From: Planctomycetota bacterium
GTDB taxonomy: Bacteria > Planctomycetota > UBA1135 > UBA2386
Length of the DNA stretch: 64,000 nt
Direction of reading: 5' to 3'
Assembly: GCA_016794425.1 (NCBI GenBank)
Contig: JAEUHR010000042.1
Location: 144,749 to 208,748 of the forward strand
Shown one piece after another: positions 7,813-39,359 of the stretch. The position numbers and the translations under genes were made by a program. The notes beneath the pieces are model-generated. The model worked only from the letters and a program-made list of their open reading frames with translations. It made no database searches and was not told where the DNA came from. Each line of letters starts with the position of its first letter. Position 1 is the first letter of the stretch.

Positions 7813-9345
7813 TCAGTACTGGTAGATCTCGGTCGCGGTCGGGCCACCGCCGACCACCAGGACCGTGGCGTCGGGCAGGTTCACCGCGACCGGGAACAAC
7901 CGCGGCGCGGCCATGCTGCCGGTCGGCGCGATCGAGTTCGGACCCTGGGCGAAGCGGTCGCAGGTCTCGGTCGGCACGAAGCCGAACGTCGACGTCGGCA
8001 CGTCGATCGTCAGCTGGAAGCCGCCGACGATCAGCGCGCCGCCGCTCGGCAGCGGCGCGACCGCGGCGCCGGCGCGGCCGACCTGCATGCCGTTCACGGT
8101 CGCGAATGTGCCGAAGCCGCCCAGGAACGACGGCGTGAACAGCTGGCAGTCGGTGCGCGTCGTCAGCACGAGGTCGGCGATGTTGCCGGTGGTCAGGAAC
8201 GTCGTGAAGTCGAGGTTCAGACCGCCGACCAGCAGCACCTTGCCGTCGCTGGTGGGCGCGGCCGAGTGCAGGAAGCGGCCGCCGCTGAAGAACGACGGCA
8301 GGCCGAAGCTGTTGGTGTTCGGGTTGAAGCGGTAGGCCGTGGCCGAGACCGTCGGCAGGTTCAGGATCGGCAGCAGGCTGATGCCACCGGCGACCAGCAC
8401 CTGGCCATTGGTCAGCGTGGTCGAGGTGTGCAGCGCGCGTGCCTCGAGCATGTTCGGGCCCGGCGCGAACGTGTTGGTGGCCGGGTCGAAGATCTCGGTC
8501 GAGCCGAGCAGGCCGGTGAACAGCGACAGCGGGTTGGCCAGGTCGAGCGCCGACAGGCCGCCGGTGATCAGCACCTTGCCGTTGCCCATCAGTGACGCGC
8601 CGTGGCCGGCCCGCGGCGACGCCATCGACAGCGTCGTCGTCGTCTGCGCGACCGGATCGTAGACCGCGGCCGCCGCGGTGGTCTGGCCGGTCGTCAGGTC
8701 GAGCCCGCCGGTGAACAGCACGCGGCCGTCCGGCAGGCCGGTGCTCTGCGAGAACAGGCCGACGCCGAACGTCACGCCGGCGGCTTCCCATTCCTCGGTG
8801 CGCGACTTGTAGCGCTGCGCGACCGGCCCTGAGCCGCCGACGAACAACAGCTCCTTGTTCGGCGCGACCGCGGTCGTGCCACCGGCGATCGGCACTGGCG
8901 GCTGGTTCAGCGGCTCCAGCCACGTGCCGGTGTGCTGCGGCGTCACGCGCACGAGGTTCGACGTGCGCCACGGACCGCCGCCGCCGAGCACCTGGAACGA
9001 ATAGGTGAACTGCGCGAAGAACGGATCGTCCGGAATCACCACCGCGGGTGTCGCGGCGCCGGTGCCGTTGGTCGTGCCGACCCAACCCGGGATCGCGAAC
9101 GACAGGTCGACGAGCCGCAGCGGAATGTCCATCGTGACGCCGTACGCCGGCAGCGGCGTCGGTTCTTCCCAGAGGTCGACCGCGAGCGCGTAGAACTCGT
9201 TCGGCTGGCCCAGGATCGGCAGCGTCGTCGGGCCACCGAGCGAGCCGCCGACTTTGTCCAGCGACAGATTCTGTGCCGCGAGCGGCGCAGCGGTGACGGC
9301 GAGGAACAGCGCAGTGAAGGTGTGGTGCGGTCGGGTGGTGGCCAT
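7813..9345 (-). CDS. Secreted Kelch-type (galactose oxidase-like) beta-propeller protein
   Basis: Start ATG 9345 gives the signal peptide MATTRPHHTFTALFLAVTAAPLAAQ. Seven spaced h-h-h-x-GG blade signatures follow: LLFVGG, VLFTGG, VLITGG, VLVAGG, VLLVGG, ALIVGG, VLVVGG. Confidence 0.7.
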   Translation of the reverse strand: MATTRPHHTFTALFLAVTAAPLAAQNLSLDKVGGSLGGPTTLPILGQPNEFYALAVDLWEEPTPLPAYGVTMDIPLRLVDLSFAIPGWVGTTNGTGAATPAVVIPDDPFFAQFTYSFQVLGGGGPWRTSNLVRVTPQHTGTWLEPLNQPPVPIAGGTTAVAPNKELLFVGGSGPVAQRYKSRTEEWEAAGVTFGVGLFSQSTGLPDGRVLFTGGLDLTTGQTTAAAAVYDPVAQTTTTLSMASPRAGHGASLMGNGKVLITGGLSALDLANPLSLFTGLLGSTEIFDPATNTFAPGPNMLEARALHTSTTLTNGQVLVAGGISLLPILNLPTVSATAYRFNPNTNSFGLPSFFSGGRFLHSAAPTSDGKVLLVGGLNLDFTTFLTTGNIADLVLTTRTDCQLFTPSFLGGFGTFATVNGMQVGRAGAAVAPLPSGGALIVGGFQLTIDVPTSTFGFVPTETCDRFAQGPNSIAPTGSMAAPRLFPVAVNLPDATVLVVGGGPTATEIYQY

Positions 9346-9406
9346 GTCCGGCAGTATGACCCGGCCGCGATCGCCGGGCCACGTACGGCTCATCCGCCGC
9401 AGCGCA

Positions 9407-10540
9407 TCAGCGGGCGCGCCACTTCGCCAGCAGCTCGCGTTCGCGTTCGGCCTTCATGCCGGCGCGCCACTCGCGGTCGCCGCGGCCGTCGCGCACCCAG
9501 GCGGCGGTGTCACGGATGGTCTCGGCGATCGGCCGGAACGTGGCGCCGGTGGCGATCGCGCGGGCGTTGGCCGCGTGGCCGTTCTTCGCGGTCGGCGTCC
9601 AGCAGCCCATCTCTTCCCACGGCGAGACACCGTTCTCGACCAGGAAGGCGTCGTCGACCCACGTGAACGTGCAGCCGTGGTTCAGCGTGCCCTTGCCGGT
9701 GTGCAGGAACTCGGCCGTCGAGATGCGGCCGTCGAAACCGACCGCGTTGAACGCGCCGGTGTGGCGGCCTTCGATCAGGCGCACGATCCAGGCGCCGAGG
9801 TCGCGCACGTCGATGAACTGCAGTTCGTTGTCGGCCGCGCCGGGCGCCAGGCACTCGCCGCCGCGCTGCAGCCGCGCCGGCCAGTAGGTGAAGCGGTCGC
9901 TCGGGTCCTCGGGACCGACGATGTAGCCGGGCCGCACCAGCGACGCGCCGTCGGGGAACGCGGCCGCGACCGCGTCTTCGCAGTAGCGCTTCAGGGCGCC
10001 GTAGAACTCGCCGTTCTCGCCCATGTGCTGCACGTACTTGTCGGCGCACTCGCACAGCGGGCTCTGCTCGTCGACCGGCGTCGCGTCCTGCTCGAGCGTC
10101 CGGTAGACCGACAGCGAACTGATGTAGACGTACTGGTCGACGTTGCCGGCCAGCACCTTGCACACGTCCTCGGTCTCGCCGGTGAAGTAGCCGTTGGTGT
10201 CGACGACGGCGTCCCACTTGCGTCCGACCAGCGCCGACAGGTCCTGCGGCGGGTCCTTCGGCCGATCGGCGCGCGGCCGGCGGCGCTGGCCGCGCAGGTG
10301 TTCGACCTCGGGGAACAGGCCGGGGTTGGTGCGACCCCGGTTCCACAGCGTGACCGTGTGGCCGTTCGCCAGCGCCGGGCGCACGACCGCCGGACCGACG
10401 AAGCTGGTGCCGCCGAGCACCAGGATGCGCTTGCCGCGGCGGTGGGGCGGCGGCACCCGCGGGGCGGCGCGCACCCCGGTGACGGCGGCGGCGGCGGCGA
10501 CGGACGACGTGGCGAGGAACGAGCGGCGCGTCTGTGGCAT
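9407..10540 (-). CDS. NAD(P)-binding SDR / epimerase-dehydratase family protein with twin-arginine (Tat) signal
   Basis: ATG 10540 gives MPQTRRSFLATSSVAAAAAVTG (a TRRSFL Tat motif). It is followed by the Rossmann motif ILVLGGTSFVG. This is the C-terminal 377 codons of track ORF 9407..12049(-). Confidence 0.8.
   Translation of the reverse strand: MPQTRRSFLATSSVAAAAAVTGVRAAPRVPPPHRRGKRILVLGGTSFVGPAVVRPALANGHTVTLWNRGRTNPGLFPEVEHLRGQRRRPRADRPKDPPQDLSALVGRKWDAVVDTNGYFTGETEDVCKVLAGNVDQYVYISSLSVYRTLEQDATPVDEQSPLCECADKYVQHMGENGEFYGALKRYCEDAVAAAFPDGASLVRPGYIVGPEDPSDRFTYWPARLQRGGECLAPGAADNELQFIDVRDLGAWIVRLIEGRHTGAFNAVGFDGRISTAEFLHTGKGTLNHGCTFTWVDDAFLVENGVSPWEEMGCWTPTAKNGHAANARAIATGATFRPIAETIRDTAAWVRDGRGDREWRAGMKAERERELLAKWRAR

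Positions 10541-14355: not shown

Positions 14356-14359
<4 letters not shown>
13817..14359 (+). CDS. infC: Translation initiation factor IF-3
   Basis: RINHQIRIRQVRVIDEEGKQLGV, DLVEIAPNQRPPVCRIMDFGKYKYE and FRGRQMAHKEVG are conserved IF-3 segments. The ATG is preceded by aagagga. Confidence 0.92.
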
Positions 14360-17942
<3,583 letters not shown>

Positions 17943-17946
<4 letters not shown>

Positions 17947-18248
17947 ACCAGCCGATCGCCGCATCGATGACCCTGTTGCTGACCTCGGTCGCCGGACTCG
18001 CGCTGTGGCGCGACACCGGCACGGCGGCAGCGCCGAACCCGGCCGTGCCCGCCGCGCGCGCGGTCCCGCCGATGGCGCCGGCCGCACCGGCGCCGGCCGC
18101 AGTGCCTGCGCCGGCCGGATGGCTGGCGTGGTTGCGCCAATGCCTGGCCCACGACCTCGCGGTCGAACTGCGCCGCGATGACGCCGGCGTGACGCTGCGG
18201 CTCGAGTGGCGCCGGCCGACTCCGGCAATGCCGCTGGCCGATCGGTGA
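17943..18248 (+). CDS. Hypothetical small membrane-anchored protein (weak call)
   Basis: GTG 17943 overlaps the sucA stop (GTGA). It reads VNQPIAASMTLLLTSVAGLALW (one hydrophobic helix) followed by an Ala/Pro-rich linker. I recognise no homology, so it could be a GC artefact. Confidence 0.35.
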
Positions 18249-18398
18249 CAGCACGGCGCGCTGCGGCGCGCGGTGGTCCGGCGCGGTCCCTGGCTCGGAC
18301 CCGGACCCGGGCAACTTGGCCCCTGGTCAAGTCCGCAGAGGTCTGGTCTGTTGGGTGTTTCCCCGCTCCGGCTCAGCCGAGCCGAGGAGACCCCGACG

Positions 18399-19799
18399 AT
18401 GCGCATCTCGACGTTCCTCTGCACCTTACCGTGGCTCGCTGTACTGGCACCTGCCCAGCACACGATCCTGTTCGTGGCCGGCTCGGCCGATCGCAACACG
18501 CTGGCGCTCGACGCACCCGAAGTCGACCTGATGCGCAGCGACGAGATCTACGAGGTCACGCCGCTGCTCGGCGTGGCCTACCCGGCGCGGCCGTTCCTGC
18601 CGATCAGCCTGCAGTACCACTACACCGGCGACCTCGACGGCGACGCGATCTACGTCGAGGACGACAGCGAAGGTCCCGGCGACACGATCGACGAGGTGTT
18701 CGTCAAGGCCGGCACCACGGGCCCGGTGACGCCGCGCGACGTCTACTGGAGCGTCGCGGCCGTGACCACCGCCAACATCCCGGGGCTGCGCGTCAGTGAC
18801 GTCGCGCGCTTCTCGGGCCAGGGCACGCTCGAGTTCTTCCTGACGCACGCGCAGCTGAACGACGCCTGCGGACTCGCCTCGACGTCGACCACGTGCAACC
18901 TCGACGCGCTGTGCCAGTCGGCGGGCGGCGACCTGTTCTTCTCGCAGGCCGGCACGATCACGATCAACGGTGTCTCCACCGAGGACGGTGACCTGTGGCG
19001 GATCCCGAGCGCGGCGATCACCTACGATGCCAACGGCAACGTCAGCGCGATCACCGTCGGCGCGGCGGTCCGCATCGCCACCGAAGACGACCTGATCGCG
19101 ATGGTCGTCGCCAGCGGGCAGCGCTCGTCGGTCGGCGGCGTCATCAACAGCGTCGCGAACCCGGCCTTCGAGCTGTCCGGCATCGAGATCGATCCGAACG
19201 GCGGCACCTGGACGTCGCCGATCGACGCGCAGAACTACCCGAACATCCTGTTCTGCTGGAACGACTTCAGCAACGACGGCGCGATCCTCAGCACGGCCGC
19301 CGGCGGTTCGATCGCGGTGGTCAACGGCGTGCCGATGGGCTCGACCGTCGCCACGCTCGGCGACCAGATCGGCATCCTGCCGGACAGCACCGGCACGTTC
19401 GGCCCCAACGGCCTCGCGCTGGTGCCGCTGCAGCCGCCGACCTTCACGCTGCAGAACTGGCCGGCCAACCAGTTCCCGGCCAGCGCGGTCTGGGTGCCGT
19501 TCCAGCTGCAGACCAGCGGCGGCACGCCGGCCGGCTTCACGGTGCTGGTCTGGTCGGTCGAGTCCGCGGCCGCCAACGGCACGTTCCCGGCGCTGCCGGC
19601 GTTCGCGCCGTTCGTCGGTGAGTTCGGCGTGCTCTCGCCGAACATCTTCGGCCTCTACGCCAACGACGCACTCGGCAACTGCGTGTCCGAGACCTTCCTG
19701 ATCGAGGCCGCCCTCGTGCACGGCGTCAACCTCGCCTGCCAGGCCCTCGACTTCACGACCTTCCGTCTGTCGACGCCGTCGGCGGCGACGTTCCTGTGA
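18399..19799 (+). CDS. Secreted protein of unknown function, tandem paralog A
   Basis: ATG 18399 is preceded by gaggaga. The signal peptide is MRISTFLCTLPWLAVLAPAQ. The protein aligns over its full length with the next gene. I recognise no known domain. Confidence 0.75.
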   Translation: MRISTFLCTLPWLAVLAPAQHTILFVAGSADRNTLALDAPEVDLMRSDEIYEVTPLLGVAYPARPFLPISLQYHYTGDLDGDAIYVEDDSEGPGDTIDEVFVKAGTTGPVTPRDVYWSVAAVTTANIPGLRVSDVARFSGQGTLEFFLTHAQLNDACGLASTSTTCNLDALCQSAGGDLFFSQAGTITINGVSTEDGDLWRIPSAAITYDANGNVSAITVGAAVRIATEDDLIAMVVASGQRSSVGGVINSVANPAFELSGIEIDPNGGTWTSPIDAQNYPNILFCWNDFSNDGAILSTAAGGSIAVVNGVPMGSTVATLGDQIGILPDSTGTFGPNGLALVPLQPPTFTLQNWPANQFPASAVWVPFQLQTSGGTPAGFTVLVWSVESAAANGTFPALPAFAPFVGEFGVLSPNIFGLYANDALGNCVSETFLIEAALVHGVNLACQALDFTTFRLSTPSAATFL

Positions 19800-19877
19800 G
19801 GTGCGCCGATGACGATTCCACGCTCGGCCGTTCCCTGCCGCCCTGTTCCCGCCTTCGCCACCCCTGGAGCCTTCCGG

Positions 19878-21260
19878 ATGCGCCCCTTCGCCTTCCCCGT
19901 CCTGTTCCCGCTGCTGCTGGCCGCCGTGCCGGCGCAGCATGCGATCCTCGTCACCTCGAGCGTCAGCGCCGGTGAACAGACGCTCGCGCTCGATCTGCCG
20001 GCCGTCGACTTCGTCGACCCCGATGCGATCTACGAAGTCGTGCCGCTGCCCGGTACGCCGTACAGCGCGCGGCCGTTCCTGCCGGTCAGCCTGCAATGGC
20101 ACTACGTCGGCGACCTCGACAACGACGGCCAGTACGTCGAGGGCTCGGTCGACGGACCGATGGGCTCGAGCGCGACGATCGACGAGATCTTCGTCAAGGC
20201 CGGCACCGTGGCGCCGGTCGGCCCGCGCGACGTGTTCTTCAGCATCTCGGCCGCGAATGCGGTGTTCGGCGTGCTCGCGTCGGACGTCGTGCGGTACGCC
20301 GGCCAAGGCGTGCGCGAGGTGTTCCTGACCGAGGCGCAGCTCGAAGTCGCGACCGGCGGCACGACGTTGAACCTCGACGCGCTGTGCCAATCGCCGGCCG
20401 GCGACCTGTTCCTGTCGTTCGCGCTCGGCGAGACCCTGCACTTCGGCAGCGCGCTCGACGGCGACCTGCTGTTCGTGCCGGCCAGCTCGATCACCTACGA
20501 CGGCAGCGGCAACGTGCTGTCGATCGCCGCCAACGCGGCGGTGCGGGTCGCCACCGAGGCCAACTTGGTGGCGATGCGCACCAACAGCGGCTTCCGCGAG
20601 TTCGACGGCACGACGCCGACGACGACGTTCAACCTGTCGGGCCTCGAGATCGACCCGAACGGCGGCACCTGGATCTCGCCGGTCGATGCGCTGGCGTACC
20701 CGAACGTGCTGTTCACCTGGAAGGACTCGTCGAACGACGGCGCGATCCTCAGCACCGCGGCCGGCGGCAGTTTCGCAGTCGTCAACGGCGTCACGCTCGG
20801 GTCGGCGGTGGCGACGACCGGTGCGCAGCTCGGCTGGCAGCCCGGCCTCAGCGGCACCAACGGCCCGAACGGGCTGGCCCTGATCCCGCTGCAGGCGCCG
20901 CAGTTCCAGGTGCTGAACTACCCGCGCAACCTGCACACGCAGGGCGACGGCCAGACGTTCGTGCAGCTGCAGACCAGCGGCGGCGCGCCGAACGGCTTCA
21001 CGATCCTGGCCTGGTCGGTCGAGGCGTCGGTGGCGGGTGGCACGTTCCCGGCGATCCCGGCGTTCGCGCCGTTCGCCGGCGAGTTCGGCATCACGGCGCC
21101 GCTGGTCATCGGTCTGTTCTTCAACGACGCGCTCGGCAACTGCGCGTCGCCGCTGATCGTGCTCGACACGGCGCTGATGTCCGGCGCGCAGGTCGCGGCG
21201 CAGGCCGTCGACTTCCCGTCGTTCCAGCTGTCGACGCCGTCGGCGATGAGCTTCCTGTGA
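19878..21260 (+). CDS. Secreted protein of unknown function, tandem paralog B
   Basis: ATG 19878 gives the signal peptide MRPFAFPVLFPLLLAAVPAQ. Blocks shared with paralog A include ARPFLP(I/V)SLQ, NLDALCQS, EIDPNGGTW, NDGAILSTAAGGS, LQTSGG, GTFPA(L/I)PAFAPF and the C-terminal LSTPSA..FL. Confidence 0.75.
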   Translation: MRPFAFPVLFPLLLAAVPAQHAILVTSSVSAGEQTLALDLPAVDFVDPDAIYEVVPLPGTPYSARPFLPVSLQWHYVGDLDNDGQYVEGSVDGPMGSSATIDEIFVKAGTVAPVGPRDVFFSISAANAVFGVLASDVVRYAGQGVREVFLTEAQLEVATGGTTLNLDALCQSPAGDLFLSFALGETLHFGSALDGDLLFVPASSITYDGSGNVLSIAANAAVRVATEANLVAMRTNSGFREFDGTTPTTTFNLSGLEIDPNGGTWISPVDALAYPNVLFTWKDSSNDGAILSTAAGGSFAVVNGVTLGSAVATTGAQLGWQPGLSGTNGPNGLALIPLQAPQFQVLNYPRNLHTQGDGQTFVQLQTSGGAPNGFTILAWSVEASVAGGTFPAIPAFAPFAGEFGITAPLVIGLFFNDALGNCASPLIVLDTALMSGAQVAAQAVDFPSFQLSTPSAMSFL

Positions 21261-21914: not shown

Positions 21915-22418
21915 GTGCTTCTTGCGGTACCGTCACGCACGACGCTTGCCGCGCGAGTGTTCCCGCGCGAGGGGCCTACTGCGGACAAGATCATCCGGCG
22001 CGGGGCAGCGTCTCAAGGGCGGAATGGTCCGCGAGCCTTGACGCGCAAGCGCAGCCGAACATGGAGTTCGAAGGCGTGGCACCCCTAAGCAGCGGCTGGC
22101 CCCGCTGGACGGCTGGTGGCAGCGACACGGGCCGCTGCTCGACGGGCCGGGGGAGTCGTACGCACTCGACCAGGAAGCCACGCCCAGCTTCAACGACACC
22201 ACAGGGTCGCGAGCGGCCGGCCAAGGCTCCTCGTCCAGCAGCGCGCCGACAGCGACTCGCGCGTCGCCCGGCGTCGCCGGTAATCACGGCTGTGCGGCCG
22301 TACACAGGTCCTGCGGCTCCAATCTGCGGGCTGGCCGATCGCCTGACTGACGGTGTGTGGCGATGAAGGGCTGGTGGCGGCTGAGACCATAGTAGCATAG
22401 CTTCCATGGAGGTTGGTC

Positions 22419-23510
22419 ATGGCGATGCGTAGAACTGGTTGCCTACTTGCAGCGGCGTTGTGTGTTGCGTCAGGCGGAGTGGCTCAGCGGGAGCCTGCTC
22501 GAAGTGGGTTGGTATGCGTAGCGGGTGCGCCGTGGGTCTGGCGCGTCACGGACAGCGGCCGGGTTGAATTGTCAGCAATCAGGGAGCAGGGCGGCGAAAC
22601 GAGATTCGATGACTGGCAGGCTGTTCCGGGCGTGGGGGGCGCCGTGAAGCGAGTTGTGTGGTGTGCGGCTGAAGAGGTTGAGCCTGGACTGCTTTGTGTC
22701 GTGACGCGACTGATGCCGGGGGCGTCGTCCTGCATTCAGGTCGCCGTAGTAGAGGTTGCAGATGGGTTCATCCGTGTCGCAGGGCTAGCCGAGATTGGCG
22801 AAGTCCGCTTCATGCGAGAGGTGGAGTCCGGGGGTGCGCCGGCCGGTCAGGATGGCGTCGTACAAATGGCGACCCAAGATGTCCGCGGAGCTGTGCTCTT
22901 GGATTGGCGGCCGGCCGTACGAGAGGGGCGGTGCTTGATAGAGGTCGGGGGCTTGCATGGGGAGGCGGGAGCGAGCCCGCAGGGAGCGGTGCGTGGGGCG
23001 GTATTGGAGTGCATCGTTGCCTTCGCGGCCGTTCCTCGTGAGGCGGACCGGGCGCCTGTGCCTCTCGAGCGACAGAGTCTGTTTGGAGAGTGGCGGTGGG
23101 CTGGGCGTGATCTGAAGGGCTTGCATGGTTCTGGGGCCGTAGCTGCGGGTGTGCGCGTGGGAGACGGAGTGACCGATGCGGTGTGTGTGTGGCGGCGAGC
23201 GGGCGGGAATGGCTGGATGCCGGCGGGTGGATTTGTTGTGGGTGGCGCCGAGTGGTATGAGATGGAGTCCTTGGGCGAGGATGGTCGTGGTGTCGTGATG
23301 ACGTGCCGTGCCGGTGAGGCTGGCGTTGTCATGTGTCGTTCGTGGGCGTCGGTGAATGGTGAGAGGAAGTGGGAGGTGTGTGATGAGCGGGTCTGGCGTC
23401 CAAGCAGCCAGCACCTGCGACCCACGGGCTATGCGAGCGTGGGCAAGCATGAATGGGTGCTATGGAGCGGGCGTGGGGGCGGCGAACAGGTGACGCGGTA
23501 CCGGCGATGA
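22419..23510 (+). CDS. Orphan secreted Trp/Cys/Gly/Val-rich protein in a compositionally atypical island
   Basis: This is the only long open frame in a region of visibly lower GC. ggagg lies 6 nt before ATG 22419. The signal-peptide-like N-terminus is MAMRRTGCLLAAALCVASGGVAQ. Codon third positions are far less GC-biased than in all neighbours. I recognise no domain. Confidence 0.55.
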   Translation: MAMRRTGCLLAAALCVASGGVAQREPARSGLVCVAGAPWVWRVTDSGRVELSAIREQGGETRFDDWQAVPGVGGAVKRVVWCAAEEVEPGLLCVVTRLMPGASSCIQVAVVEVADGFIRVAGLAEIGEVRFMREVESGGAPAGQDGVVQMATQDVRGAVLLDWRPAVREGRCLIEVGGLHGEAGASPQGAVRGAVLECIVAFAAVPREADRAPVPLERQSLFGEWRWAGRDLKGLHGSGAVAAGVRVGDGVTDAVCVWRRAGGNGWMPAGGFVVGGAEWYEMESLGEDGRGVVMTCRAGEAGVVMCRSWASVNGERKWEVCDERVWRPSSQHLRPTGYASVGKHEWVLWSGRGGGEQVTRYRR

Positions 23511-23771
23511 GGAGATCGCTCGGACTGCGAGTGCGCTCGTCCTCTCGGTGAATGGCCCTGCTCACTCGGAGTGTCTTCGACTGCGGGCAGAACGAGTCGT
23601 TCGGCCCTTTGCTCGGGCGCGAGCCAACAGGTTGCTTGCGCAAAGGGCAGCGATGGGTGGAGGCTCGGCGGATGCAGCGACCGCACGGGGAAGCTGAAGC
23701 CGGGGAATACCCAGGTGATCCGGTGGTCGGGCGGACTTGGTCGCTGTGACGATGGAGTAGTCGCCTGCCGC

Positions 23772-36821: not shown

Positions 36822-38747
36822 CTACGGCGTCGTGCGGTTGGTGAAGATCCCGGCCGGCGTGGTGCGGTGGTCGAGCCAGGCCAGCAGCAGGCGGGCGCCG
36901 TCGGTCCGCAGCAGCGGCTGCTCCTGGGCGCTGCTGCCGTCGCCGAAGCCGGTCGGCGACGTGAACTGCAGCGGCGGGTCGCCGGGCTGCGGGTTCACGG
37001 CGAGGCCGGTCGACACCGCGGTCAGGATGCGCGCCGCACCGCCGGCGACGGCGCCCGAGCGCCAGGCAGCGAACACGTAGTTGCCCTGCATCGCGATCGT
37101 CGGTTCGCCGGCGGGGCCGGTGACCGAACTGACGGTCTCGTGCAGCGGCGTCGCGCCGATGCCGCCGACGCGCGAGACGGCCACGGCGGTGCCGGCCAGC
37201 AGGTAGATCGCGTGCAGCCGGTCGCCTTCACAGCACAGCGCCGGTTCGCTGACGGCGCCGCCGTCGCTGCGCAGCACGAACGCGACCGTCGGCCACGACA
37301 CGCCGGCGTCGCCGGAGGCGACGTACTCCAGCGCGTTGGCGCGCAGCCAGGCGAGCCAGACCGTGTTGCCGTCGGCGCACAGCCGCGGCGTGTCGGCGGC
37401 CGCGCCGGCGAGGCTGCGCCGTTCCGCCGACTGCCACGTGATGCCGCTGTTGGCGGTGCGGGCGGTGTAGATGCCGGTGGCGGTCAGGCCGTCGCGCTCG
37501 TCGACGAACGCGAGCCATGCGCTGGCGCCGTTGCAGGCCAGTTCGTGGGCGCGCTGGTTGGCGCCGCCCAGCGCATCGACCACGGTCGCGGTGCGCCACG
37601 TGTCGCCGGCGTCGGTCGATGCGGTGGCGACGATGCGGGCCGTGCCGAGGCCGGTGCTGCCGCGCATCCAGGCCGCGTAGCGGCGCGCGCCGCTGCCGAC
37701 CAGGCGGGGGCGTTGCACCGGTGTGCCGGTGTCCAGCGTCACCGCCGCGTCGAAGCCGGCGCCGCCGTCGTGTGACGTGCGCGCCAGCACGCTGTTGCCG
37801 CTGCCGATCCACGCGACCACGACGTCCTGGCCGGCGACGAACACCTGCGGTTCGGTGACGGCCTCGCCGCCGCTGAGGGTCTGCGCGGCGCTCCAGGTCG
37901 CGCCGCCGTTCGCCGACGCCGCGTGCGCCAGCGTCGTGCCTTCGACCCAGACCGCGTGCACGGCGGCGCCGTCGCGCGCCAGCTGCGGTGCCGAGCCGGC
38001 GCCGGCGTCGAGCCGCGTGTCGGTGGCGGCCAGCGCCGGCGGGAACGCGAACGCCGTGAACGCGCTGCCGGGCAGCGCCGAGTTGCCGAACGCGTGCGCC
38101 ACCGCGACCGTGGTCGCGCCGACCGTCAGGCCCGCCGGCGTGCTGCAGGTCAGGCTGGTGTCGGCCACCGCCGTCAGGTCGGTGGCGGCGATGCCGTCGA
38201 AGCTCGCCGTCGGCGCGACGCTGCCGCCGAGCGTGAAGGCGCTGCCGGTGATCGTGACCACCTGCGGTCGGCCGGCGAACGCGCTGTCGGGTTCGACGCC
38301 GGTGACGGTCGGCGCGCCGGTGCGCACGATGCGCACGTCGACCGCCGCCGCGGCACCGCGCGGGTCCTCGACCAGCAACACCAGCGTCACCGCGGCCGGG
38401 GCCGCGACCGTGGTCACGTCGAGCGTGAACTCAGGACCGATCACCGGGGTCGAGAACGACAGGCCGGCGGCGGTCGCGCTGCCGTTCGTCGCCTGCGCGG
38501 TCCACTGCAGCGGGTCGCCATCGGCGTCGGTCGCCGCGAACACCAGATTGCGCGTGTCGCCGGTGGCCAGCAGCAGCGTGCGGCTGGCGCCGGTGCCGGA
38601 CAGCCCGCTGGGCGGGGTCAGCGTCGGCGTCGTATTGGCCGGCGGGGGCGGGGTGCCACCGCCGCCGCCGCCGCCGCCGCAGGCGGTGGCGAGGCCGAGG
38701 GCGAGCAGGACCGGGAGTTGGCGGAGCGAGAGCATGCGGGCGCGCAT
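36822..38747 (-). CDS. Lipoprotein with IPT/TIG-like domain(s) and BNR/Asp-box (sialidase-like) beta-propeller repeats
   Basis: ATG 38747 gives MRARMLSLRQLPVLLALGLATAC (lipobox). It is followed by eight Gly and a Pro/Thr linker. Asp-box-like repeats are SANGGATWS, SHDGGAGF, STDAGDTWR, TANSGITWQ and SGDAGVSWP. Confidence 0.7.
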   Translation of the reverse strand: MRARMLSLRQLPVLLALGLATACGGGGGGGGTPPPPANTTPTLTPPSGLSGTGASRTLLLATGDTRNLVFAATDADGDPLQWTAQATNGSATAAGLSFSTPVIGPEFTLDVTTVAAPAAVTLVLLVEDPRGAAAAVDVRIVRTGAPTVTGVEPDSAFAGRPQVVTITGSAFTLGGSVAPTASFDGIAATDLTAVADTSLTCSTPAGLTVGATTVAVAHAFGNSALPGSAFTAFAFPPALAATDTRLDAGAGSAPQLARDGAAVHAVWVEGTTLAHAASANGGATWSAAQTLSGGEAVTEPQVFVAGQDVVVAWIGSGNSVLARTSHDGGAGFDAAVTLDTGTPVQRPRLVGSGARRYAAWMRGSTGLGTARIVATASTDAGDTWRTATVVDALGGANQRAHELACNGASAWLAFVDERDGLTATGIYTARTANSGITWQSAERRSLAGAAADTPRLCADGNTVWLAWLRANALEYVASGDAGVSWPTVAFVLRSDGGAVSEPALCCEGDRLHAIYLLAGTAVAVSRVGGIGATPLHETVSSVTGPAGEPTIAMQGNYVFAAWRSGAVAGGAARILTAVSTGLAVNPQPGDPPLQFTSPTGFGDGSSAQEQPLLRTDGARLLLAWLDHRTTPAGIFTNRTTP

Positions 38748-38825
38748 CGGGGGACTGTGCAGCCTAGCAGGGCCACGGGTGGCCGTTGCAGGAGGGGGCG
38801 CGAATCCGGGGGCACCGCCCATGCC

Positions 38826-39359
38826 ATGGCACTAGCATGCCGCCCCGCGATGCACGACACCGACCCGCGCCCGCCCCTGCTGCCACCGCGCCTGCTGGCC
38901 GCCGTGAAGGTCCTGTTCGGCGCTTTCGCCGCCGCGCTGGCCGTGATCGGCGGCGTGCTGACCTTCGGCCTCGCCGGCTGCGAGCTGTGGCACGCGGTCG
39001 AACACCTGTTCGGCCTCGGCGCGGCGGTCGTCAGCGACCTCGACCAGGCGATGGTCTACATCGTCAAGTCGATCGACGCCGTGCTGCTGGCCTTGGTGCA
39101 GTTCCTGCTCGCGGCCTACCTGTGGCAGATCCTCGACCCGAAGGAGTCGCTGCTCGACGAGGAGAACATCGAGCGGCTCGAGGAGGCCAAGCAGATCCTG
39201 TGCAAGGTGCTGCTCGTGATCATCGCCGTGCGCATGCTCAGCGCGCTGATCGAGCCGGGCGACCTCAAGTGGCACGACCTGATGGTGTTCCCGGCCGCGA
39301 TCCTGGCGCTGTCGTTCGGCAACACGGCGCTGCGGCGCGACAGCCGCGCGTCCTCGTGA
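38826..39359 (+). CDS. Small integral membrane protein (YqhA/PsiE-like, uncertain)
   Basis: There are about four hydrophobic helices. The start is ATG 38826 or ATG 38850 (MHDTDPRPP). This is the inner part of track ORF 37923..39359(+). Confidence 0.55.
   Translation: MALACRPAMHDTDPRPPLLPPRLLAAVKVLFGAFAAALAVIGGVLTFGLAGCELWHAVEHLFGLGAAVVSDLDQAMVYIVKSIDAVLLALVQFLLAAYLWQILDPKESLLDEENIERLEEAKQILCKVLLVIIAVRMLSALIEPGDLKWHDLMVFPAAILALSFGNTALRRDSRASS

Follow-up and report, generated by a model that had tools for sequence, protein, structure and literature searches.

Two adjacent genes, which we call A and B, lie at positions 18399-21260 of a 64,000-nucleotide stretch of planctomycete DNA (positions 144,749 to 208,748 of contig JAEUHR010000042.1, assembly GCA_016794425.1). 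They raise the question of whether they are a genuine and maintained pair, what kind of protein they encode, and whether the peptide with which both products end could be a sorting signal. Below, "the window" refers to this whole stretch, and positions are counted from its first letter. We conclude that A and B are two real genes encoding Sec-exported, acidic proteins of ~46 kDa, and that their family, which has no name, is confined to uncultured Planctomycetota. The fold and the function of the proteins are answered below with less certainty, and the sorting signal is not supported.

Two genes of an unnamed family

Gene A occupies positions 18399-19799 of the forward strand (ATG at 18399, stop codon at 19797-19799) and encodes 466 amino acids, gene B occupies positions 19878-21260 of the same strand (ATG at 19878, stop codon at 21258-21260) and encodes 460 amino acids, and the spacer between them (19800-19877, forward strand) is 78 nt long. 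These coordinates agree with the initial annotation, which had described two neighboring genes of about 460 codons separated by 78 nt, whose products are paralogues that align end to end with about half of the positions identical. A BLASTP comparison of the two products finds 261 identical positions out of 470 (56%), from the first residue to the last, with an E-value of 1e-169, and the shared blocks pointed out earlier are all present, including the APAQH and VPAQH contexts and the LSTPSA(A/M)(T/S)FL ends. In both open reading frames (ORFs) the G+C content is 0.93-0.94 at third codon positions (GC3) as opposed to 0.51-0.52 at second codon positions (GC2), and the window is ~72% G+C throughout; such a contrast is a signature of genuine coding sequence in a genome of 72% G+C. 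An artefactual pair of ORFs is ruled out by this codon bias, by the conservation of the two sequences and by the purifying selection described below.

The product of gene A is 100% identical to P0001 among the protein clusters searched, and the product of gene B is identical to P0034, that is, JNL08_14225, which is listed at NCBI as a 'hypothetical protein' of a Planctomycetes metagenome-assembled genome (MAG). The gene A product is 65-79% identical to its orthologues in the A clade (defined below), except for the two that have diverged furthest, P0016 and P0017 (58-62%). Among 5.8 billion proteins searched, 80 clusters at 90% identity were found. All are unnamed or 'hypothetical', no Pfam domain is present in any of them, and wherever a source is named it is a Planctomycetes or Planctomycetota MAG. 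When the family profile was compared with 1.84 billion representatives at 50% identity, 338 representatives were found at E ≤ 1e-3 and 146 at E ≤ 1e-30; family members are nearly all 450-530 amino acids long and are matched over their full length. Scanning one genome per species gave 25 loci, all in MAGs, of which 23 are assigned to Planctomycetota and two are titled only 'MAG: bacterium'.

Both the absence of a recognizable domain and the restriction of the family to one lineage, as supposed in the initial annotation, hold up in these searches. At E ≤ 10, neither Pfam nor NCBIfam gives anything meaningful for A or B (NCBIfam has no match to A and only an irrelevant sub-threshold match of RutR to B), PADLOC and PHROGs contain no match for the pair, and the family profile matches no PDB sequence at E ≤ 10. 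A clear match of a hidden Markov model of a characterized domain was looked for and not found. One hundred diverse or distant members scanned singly against Pfam produced noise only, which leans faintly to propeller repeats (Reg_prop, FG-GAP and DUF5122, all at E ≥ 0.02). A further profile search based on the 100 distant members recovered nothing but known family proteins, which likewise lack Pfam domains, and the cluster names of 10 distant members are absent or 'hypothetical protein' throughout.

Duplication and organization of the locus

A neighbor-joining (NJ) tree built from 72 members supports the A clade and the B clade with a bootstrap value of 100 each, and the core clade, consisting of A, B and a single-copy clade S, has the same support. 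No branching order of these three clades is well supported, A grouping with B in 54% and S with B in 30% of the bootstrap replicates. A and B occur together in the window and in four other genomes (L002, L005, L007 and L008), and the data suggest that the pair exists in about five more. In one of the four, MAG GCA_019636245 (L002), the pair lies in the same neighborhood as in the window, and two sister genomes (L035 and L036) carry the same locus (infC, sucA, hydrolase, family gene, thioesterase, DHDPS, aldehyde dehydrogenase) with a single copy of the family gene. The simplest reading is that one tandem duplication took place in situ in the ancestor of the window's lineage and that both copies have been kept since.

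In all of the descendant genomes sampled, both copies have been retained under purifying selection. For the closest pair of orthologues (L007 vs. L008), the ratio of nonsynonymous to synonymous substitution rates (dN/dS) comes to 0.083 in A and 0.092 in B. We rely on this pair only, because the synonymous sites are compressed by a GC3 of ~0.94 and comparisons of A with B or of distant orthologues are uninformative for that reason; the synonymous divergence (dS) estimated by NG86 plateaus near 0.4-0.5, and YN00 fails on A vs. B and on distant pairs. The earlier proposal that the genes are maintained as a duplicated pair is thus well founded on the two clades, the pairs in five genomes and the low dN/dS. 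At 114 positions the A and B clades share the same residue with a conservation of 90% or more, and they consistently differ at one position only, 183.

Elsewhere in the tree, too, family genes are found side by side or nearly so (L012/L030, L015, L019, L024, L028 and L032), and assembly GCA_028281765.1 holds two separate pairs (L019 and L032). Judging from where these distant pairs fall in the tree, either tandem duplication happened several times independently or an older pair has undergone concerted evolution. The genomic contexts of distant members are unrelated to each other and include a sulfatase and FG-GAP_2 plus TIG proteins, PhoX, proline racemase, a kinase and a beta-lactamase-fold protein; across all loci the sole recurrent neighbor of a family gene is another family member.

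The start of gene B deserves separate consideration. The ATG at 19878 is preceded by GGAG at 19866-19869 (forward strand), and an alternative in-frame ATG is located at 19809, 9 nt past the gene A stop codon, preceded by GAGGTG at 19798-19803 (forward strand), which overlaps that stop codon. All five genomes with the A/B pair have an ATG 9-11 nt past the A stop and a GAGG(T/A) overlapping the stop. In these genomes the distances from the early to the late ATG of B are 51, 57, 69, 72 and 84 nt, all multiples of three and free of stop codons, and the length of the A-B spacer differs among the five. Gene callers picked the long form in at least 8 B-clade proteins (472-490 amino acids). Because the in-frame ATG and the GAGGTG by the A stop are kept in five genomes, gene B may start at ATG 19809, which would give a product of 483 amino acids, a gap of 9 nt instead of 78 nt and translational coupling to A, or the gene may have two starts. 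For gene A, a Shine-Dalgarno-like GAGGAG (18384-18389, forward strand) is found 9 nt 5' of the start, and GGAG occurs 9-10 nt ahead of the gene A start also in four orthologous loci. The two genes are probably co-transcribed, judging from the spacer, in which no terminator-like hairpin was found, and from the Shine-Dalgarno-like site that each gene has of its own. A scan for sigma-70-like promoter sites found none, which says little for a planctomycete of 72% G+C, and an Rfam search of the window gave no match.

The window as a whole is ordinary chromosome, with genes for glycine dehydrogenase, IF-3, class II ribonucleotide reductase, biotin carboxylase and the like. The pair is flanked upstream by sucA followed by a 101-aa ORF, and downstream, on the opposite strand, by an Abhydrolase_11 gene, methyltransferases and a 4HBT thioesterase. 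The sucA product (14356-17946) is the E1 component of 2-oxoglutarate dehydrogenase with a fused N-terminal 2-oxoacid acyltransferase (E2 catalytic) domain, which is also found in L002, L035 and L036; an E2-E1 fusion is known from actinobacterial Kgd/OdhA. The 101-aa ORF (17943-18248), directly 3' of sucA, has no Pfam match, and its position is taken by a DUF3500 gene in L035 and L036 and by a 105-aa gene in L002. Between the Abhydrolase_11 gene and a methyltransferase gene, a stretch of ~1.85 kb (21933-23771) has a G+C content of 0.67 vs. ~0.72 and a strong G-over-C skew of +0.23. Within it, a 363-aa ORF at 22419-23510 (forward strand) has a signal- or lipoprotein-like start (MAMRRTGCLLAAALCVASGG), no Pfam match and no GC3 bias, and the whole stretch is missing at the equivalent place in GCA_019636245. 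It may be an insertion of foreign DNA.

Export and domain architecture

Both products begin with MR, followed by a hydrophobic core of ~15 residues, by A/V-P-A and then by Q-H. In A, the signal peptide read from the n-, h- and c-region layout comprises residues 1-19 (MRISTFLCTLPWLAVLAPA; 18399-18455, forward strand), with cleavage predicted before Q. The basic n-region, the hydrophobic h-region and the small residues at positions -3 and -1 are those of a Sec signal processed by signal peptidase I, and A19 and Q20 are at least 90% conserved across the family. We infer that the proteins are exported by the Sec system and cleaved by signal peptidase I after APA, in line with the initial annotation, which had considered them exported. 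In the structural model described below the signal peptide is a helix (residues 2-15) of low confidence. A lipoprotein signal is ruled out by the lack of a conserved lipobox Cys, a Tat signal by the lack of a twin arginine, and the hydropathy profile contains no second hydrophobic helix in A or B. The mature proteins of ~46 kDa have an isoelectric point of 4.05 and only 1-2 Lys.

The structure of A was modeled with AlphaFold2 from an alignment of 73 family sequences, which gave a predicted local distance difference test score (pLDDT) of 93.4 and a predicted template-modeling score (pTM) of 0.92, and the pLDDT of a single-sequence model was 32. A Foldseek search with the predicted structure found no full-length match in the PDB, the best match being integrin alpha-V (E 4.9e-4, template-modeling (TM) score 0.18), and no real match among viral structures. 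According to the secondary structure of the model, the profile self-alignment and the coevolution analysis, the mature protein is composed of an N-terminal domain of four beta repeats of ~80 residues (residues 20-343; 18456-19427, forward strand), followed by a C-terminal Ig-like beta-sandwich (residues 344-466; 19428-19796, forward strand), and gene B has the same domain layout.

Aligning the family profile with itself in hhalign detects a repeat at a shift of ~85 residues with 95.7% probability (E 9e-9, 134 columns). The repeats comprise residues 45-129, 130-195 and 196-292, with neighboring repeats related at 85% and 91% probability, and the fourth unit would consist of residues 293-345 together with the N-terminal strand. 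Each repeat has at least four strands and then a short helix (helices 69-76, 150-156, 229-239 and 322-324), and in the model the first, innermost strands are 97-101, 167-173, 259-264 and 337-343. These strands open with Asp or Asn, then Ala or Gly, then a hydrophobic residue. The first of these positions is conserved as D98 in 84%, D169 in 78%, D258 in 54% (with E in 26% and N in 13%) and N337 in 34% (with G in 18% and D in 9%), and it is directly followed by A99 in 75%, A170 in 88% and G338 in 74%, the glycine of blade III, G261, being located three residues past D258.

Coevolution was assessed by mean-field direct-coupling analysis of 246 sequences (effective number of sequences, Neff, 209). 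The couplings recover hairpins within the units (171-179, 170-182, 201-224, 202-222, 261-286, 117-136 and 296-313). They also connect the first strands of units that would be neighbors in a ring (I-II, p 0.002; II-III, p 0.034; III-IV, p 0.004; IV-I, p 0.017), and those of diagonal pairs are not significant (p 0.26 and 0.18). The first mature strand, 21-26, couples both with strand 337-343 (23-339 and 26-338; p 0.006) and with residues 50-53 (22-54 and 24-50; p 0.0004). Taken together, the self-alignment, the couplings and the helices after each unit lead us to infer for the N-terminal domain a closed, propeller-like ring of four blades, in which strand 21-26 would complete the last blade in 'velcro' fashion by a strand swap.

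Between the blade IV helix and blade I lies a loop of the pattern G77-D78-x-D80-x-D82-(G)-x-Y-x-E87 (GDLDGDAIYVE in A; 18627-18659, forward strand), recognized from column conservation, which among the 246 members reaches 98% for G77, 99% for D78, 83% for D80 (with N in 11%), 90% for D82 (with N in 7%), 68% for G83 and 75% for E/D at 87. Residues 77-87 form what we take to be a DxDxDG calcium-binding motif, and this loop probably binds calcium. Two other candidate features were rejected: a conserved disulphide, the Cys columns not being consistently paired, and a relation of the segment 'IDPNGGTW' to Asp-box/BNR repeats, which is contradicted by one extra residue, a single occurrence and the lack of a BNR match.

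The C-terminal domain has seven strands in the model and superposes on known Ig-like domains. In Foldseek it matches apoproteins of the neocarzinostatin family (neocarzinostatin, macromomycin and C-1027) with probabilities of 0.99-1.0 and target-normalized TM scores of 0.49-0.58, and the MG domains of complement C3 with probabilities of 0.91-0.97; PDE6D is also matched. Coevolution ladders are found inside the domain, and its couplings to strands of blades I and II (172-417, 148-417 and 215-349) imply that the two domains form a compact body.

The profile of the C-terminal domain also matches other exported Planctomycetota proteins, weakly but significantly (E 4e-6 to 4e-4), at L005 (1307-2050), L013 (3735-5312, reverse strand), L010 (2-748), L020 (11340-13736), L027 (11287-12669, reverse strand) and L031 (5025-6062). 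In four of these proteins, one of which carries DUF1028 and Invasin_D3, the domain is matched C-terminally, and in another N-terminally; a protein of 149 amino acids consists of a signal peptide and little but the C-domain. In one protein the match stops ~45 residues short of the C-terminus. A search of 5.8 billion proteins with the same profile gave no match. From its occurrence in otherwise unrelated exported proteins, the domain appears to be an unnamed, reusable Ig-like module. The window encodes two other exported proteins of propeller type, a Kelch-repeat protein (7813-9453, reverse strand) and a TIG plus BNR_2 protein (36822-38831, reverse strand); neither matches the profile of the N- or the C-terminal domain of the family.

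Possible functions and comparison with known systems

The explanation that we favor as a whole, and to which we would give an even chance, is that A and B are duplicated exported proteins composed of a ring and an Ig-like domain that act as calcium-stabilized, non-catalytic binders or scaffolds. Each protein would be a compact two-domain unit in which the Ig-like sandwich packs on repeats I and II of the four-repeat ring, with the four innermost strands touching around the central axis and the first mature strand joining the last repeat to close the ring. Such a protein might serve in the periplasm or at the cell surface in the manner of a lectin, an adhesin or a carrier, and the two paralogues would offer two specificities or a hetero-oligomer. 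The assignment as a calcium-stabilized, non-enzymatic binding protein is a best guess by analogy and the weakest step of the argument. It is suggested by the non-catalytic character of the invariant residues, the absence of a conserved enzymatic or transport partner and the fact that the nearest analogues are binding modules. Among 134 diverse members, the near-invariant residues are only Gly, Pro, Asp, Thr and Gln, at repeat-equivalent or loop positions, with no His, Cys, Ser, Lys, Arg or Glu among them, and no neighbor other than the paralogue is conserved at the family loci.

Several observations weigh against this explanation. The topology of the ring is derived from secondary structure, repeat detection and noisy coevolution (Neff ~209) and not from the coordinates of the model; the fourth unit aligns with the other three in the same register but not significantly (probability 2-11%); and Foldseek offers no good propeller match in the PDB, the best being that to integrin alpha-V. 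In addition, the invariant D196 and D265 could be catalytic, and some distant members are encoded beside secreted hydrolases such as a sulfatase and PhoX.

The last two observations also speak for a different function, namely that A and B are secreted enzymes (a glycoside hydrolase, a lyase or an esterase) in which a catalytic domain of propeller type would act through conserved acidic residues, the Ig-like domain aiding in substrate binding. Besides the two near-invariant aspartates there is a conserved E263, the neighbors of distant members include a beta-lactamase-fold protein and peptidases in addition to the sulfatase and PhoX, and many carbohydrate-active enzymes of propeller fold use Asp or Glu. 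However, the conserved aspartates occupy repeat-equivalent positions that look structural, His, Ser, Cys, Lys and Arg are not conserved, no enzyme family in Pfam or NCBIfam matches the pair or the 100 diverse members, and the neighboring hydrolases are not kept across loci. We therefore regard catalysis as unlikely.

The two proteins might also function only together, as an obligate heterodimer in which two four-fold rings clamp a ligand, much as haem is held between the two homologous domains of hemopexin. The repeated retention of tandem pairs would then be explained; they are found adjacent or nearly so in at least 7 kinds of locus (the window's lineage, L012/L030, L015, L019, L024, L028 and L032), and their placement in the NJ tree implies several separate duplications; both copies are under purifying selection, and the genes are probably co-transcribed. 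Yet what looks like repeated duplication could also stem from gene conversion between the copies of a pair, most of the loci examined are single-copy, which implies that a single protein is functional alone, and a specialized heteromeric interface would predict more than the one clade-specific signature position that is seen. An obligate heterodimer thus seems to us quite improbable. The same holds for the boldest form of the idea, a long shot in our estimation, in which the N-terminal domain founds an undescribed superfamily of four-bladed propellers with blades of ~80 residues, velcro closure and one calcium loop, and the tandem paralogues form a ligand-capturing heterodimer of two rings. 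If this were true, Planctomycetota would have evolved a hemopexin-like carrier architecture independently, without descent from hemopexin.

There remains the suggestion of the initial annotation that the conserved peptide at the C-terminus serves as a signal for sorting or anchoring, which did not stand. The terminal peptide of A, LSTPSAATFL (residues 457-466; 19767-19796, forward strand), is modeled as the final strand of the sandwich (461-465, pLDDT ~95). This strand is coupled to its sandwich neighbors (447-461, 447-463, 383-461 and 430-462; as strand windows, C7-C6 p 0.007 and C7-C5 p 0.013). Two single top-ranked couplings connect the peptide with the N-terminal domain (459-226 and 460-305), which as windows are not significant (p 0.054 and 0.15), and the peptide probably lies close to that domain as well. 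No hydrophobic, transmembrane or basic tail follows the peptide, none of the NCBIfam models of sorting signals (T9SS CTD, PEP-CTERM, LPXTG, MYXO-CTERM and similar) matches at E ≤ 10, and the window contains no other copy of the terminal motif or of either domain. As to whether other proteins end in LSTPSA..FL, a survey of the window together with 36 related loci (3,896 ORFs in all) found the motif in family members only, 6 spurious short ORFs excepted. The final residues vary among distant members (from ..SFL to ..EIRP and ..QFK) while Q448 (97%) and P460 (92%) persist. Since the peptide is the last strand of the sandwich and the motif is confined to the family, the idea of a sorting signal is unsupported, and the conservation of the peptide is most likely structural. 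That the peptide or the whole C-terminal domain is read by a secretion or attachment machinery could still be argued from the position of the C-terminus, which in every member is no more than a few residues from this strand, with Q448 and P460 above 90% conserved, from the weak profile matches at the C-terminal ends of four unrelated secreted proteins, and from the Ig-like fold of the C-terminal domains of the type IX secretion system (T9SS CTD), but the strand is integral to the sandwich, the domain also occurs N-terminally, nearly alone or ~45 residues from the end, and its search against 5.8 billion proteins was empty, so that we consider such a signal very improbable.

With these alternatives weighed, the explanation as exported, calcium-stabilized binders or scaffolds remains the one that we favor, and A and B represent a real, conserved and uncharacterized family with a well-supported evolutionary history and a plausible and unusual fold. 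Planctomycetota have very large sets of exported 'hypothetical' proteins, and the biology of their envelope is poorly understood. One such family is now defined, with its 338 representatives, a fixed architecture of 450-530 amino acids, a structural hypothesis, a dated duplication in situ and residues to mutate. To our knowledge, four-bladed propellers are rare and hemopexin-type domains are essentially the only established class. If the proposed ring is correct, it would be a second example of a four-bladed propeller, unrelated in sequence, with long blades and closure by strand swap, which would be of structural interest and would justify a Pfam entry. The family has no bearing on a long-standing open question.

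Among known systems, the closest resemblance is to the four-bladed propeller of the hemopexin type, in which membership is not established. The hemopexin fold consists of four four-stranded blades with helices between the blades, and its innermost strands start with Asp/Asn, Ala/Gly and a hydrophobic residue (PMC6934871). Like the hemopexin-like propellers (PF00045; the MMP PEX domain, vitronectin and plant PA2-type albumins), the family would have four beta-sheet units about a pseudo four-fold axis, short helices between the units and the same opening of the innermost strands, and it may share the general role of a binding module rather than an enzyme. The repeats, however, are ~45-50 residues long in hemopexin and ~80 in the family, whose ring would be closed by the N-terminal strand. 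Animal hemopexin domains are closed by a disulphide. PF00045 matches neither A nor B nor any of the 100 members, hemopexin sequences are absent from the PDB search with the family profile (E ≤ 10), no hemopexin-fold entry is among the best 50 PDB matches of the full-length model in Foldseek, and hhalign gives a probability below 2% against the PEX domain of MMP-1. The best local match in hhalign, which is not significant, places 'TIDEVFVKAG' of the family on 'KVDAVFMKDG' of MMP-1 in the same structural register.

A second comparison is with integrin alpha, in which an FG-GAP propeller is followed by an Ig-like 'thigh' domain. The order of a propeller-type domain and an Ig-like sandwich and the presence of a DxDxDG-type loop are common to both, and integrin alpha-V is the top Foldseek match of the family model, but at the low TM score given above. 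Secreted bacterial proteins with FG-GAP_2 and TIG domains are also encoded near a distant family member at L003. Integrin alpha has seven blades of ~60 residues with FG-GAP motifs, in contrast to four repeats of ~80 residues and one calcium loop in the family. An FG-GAP propeller is ruled out by the Pfam test, in which FG-GAP models match neither A nor B and 2 of the 100 members (E 0.024 or weaker), and by the internal period of ~85 residues repeated four times.

With the sorting domains (the T9SS CTD, TIGR04183, which is itself a small Ig-like sandwich; PEP-CTERM; and LPXTG) the family has in common a conserved extreme C-terminus on exported proteins. It differs from them in that it matches none of the models, has no tail and does not share its terminal motif with other exported proteins. 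A and B are best classed as exported proteins of a putative propeller-plus-Ig binding type that represent a family as yet without a name or a domain model.

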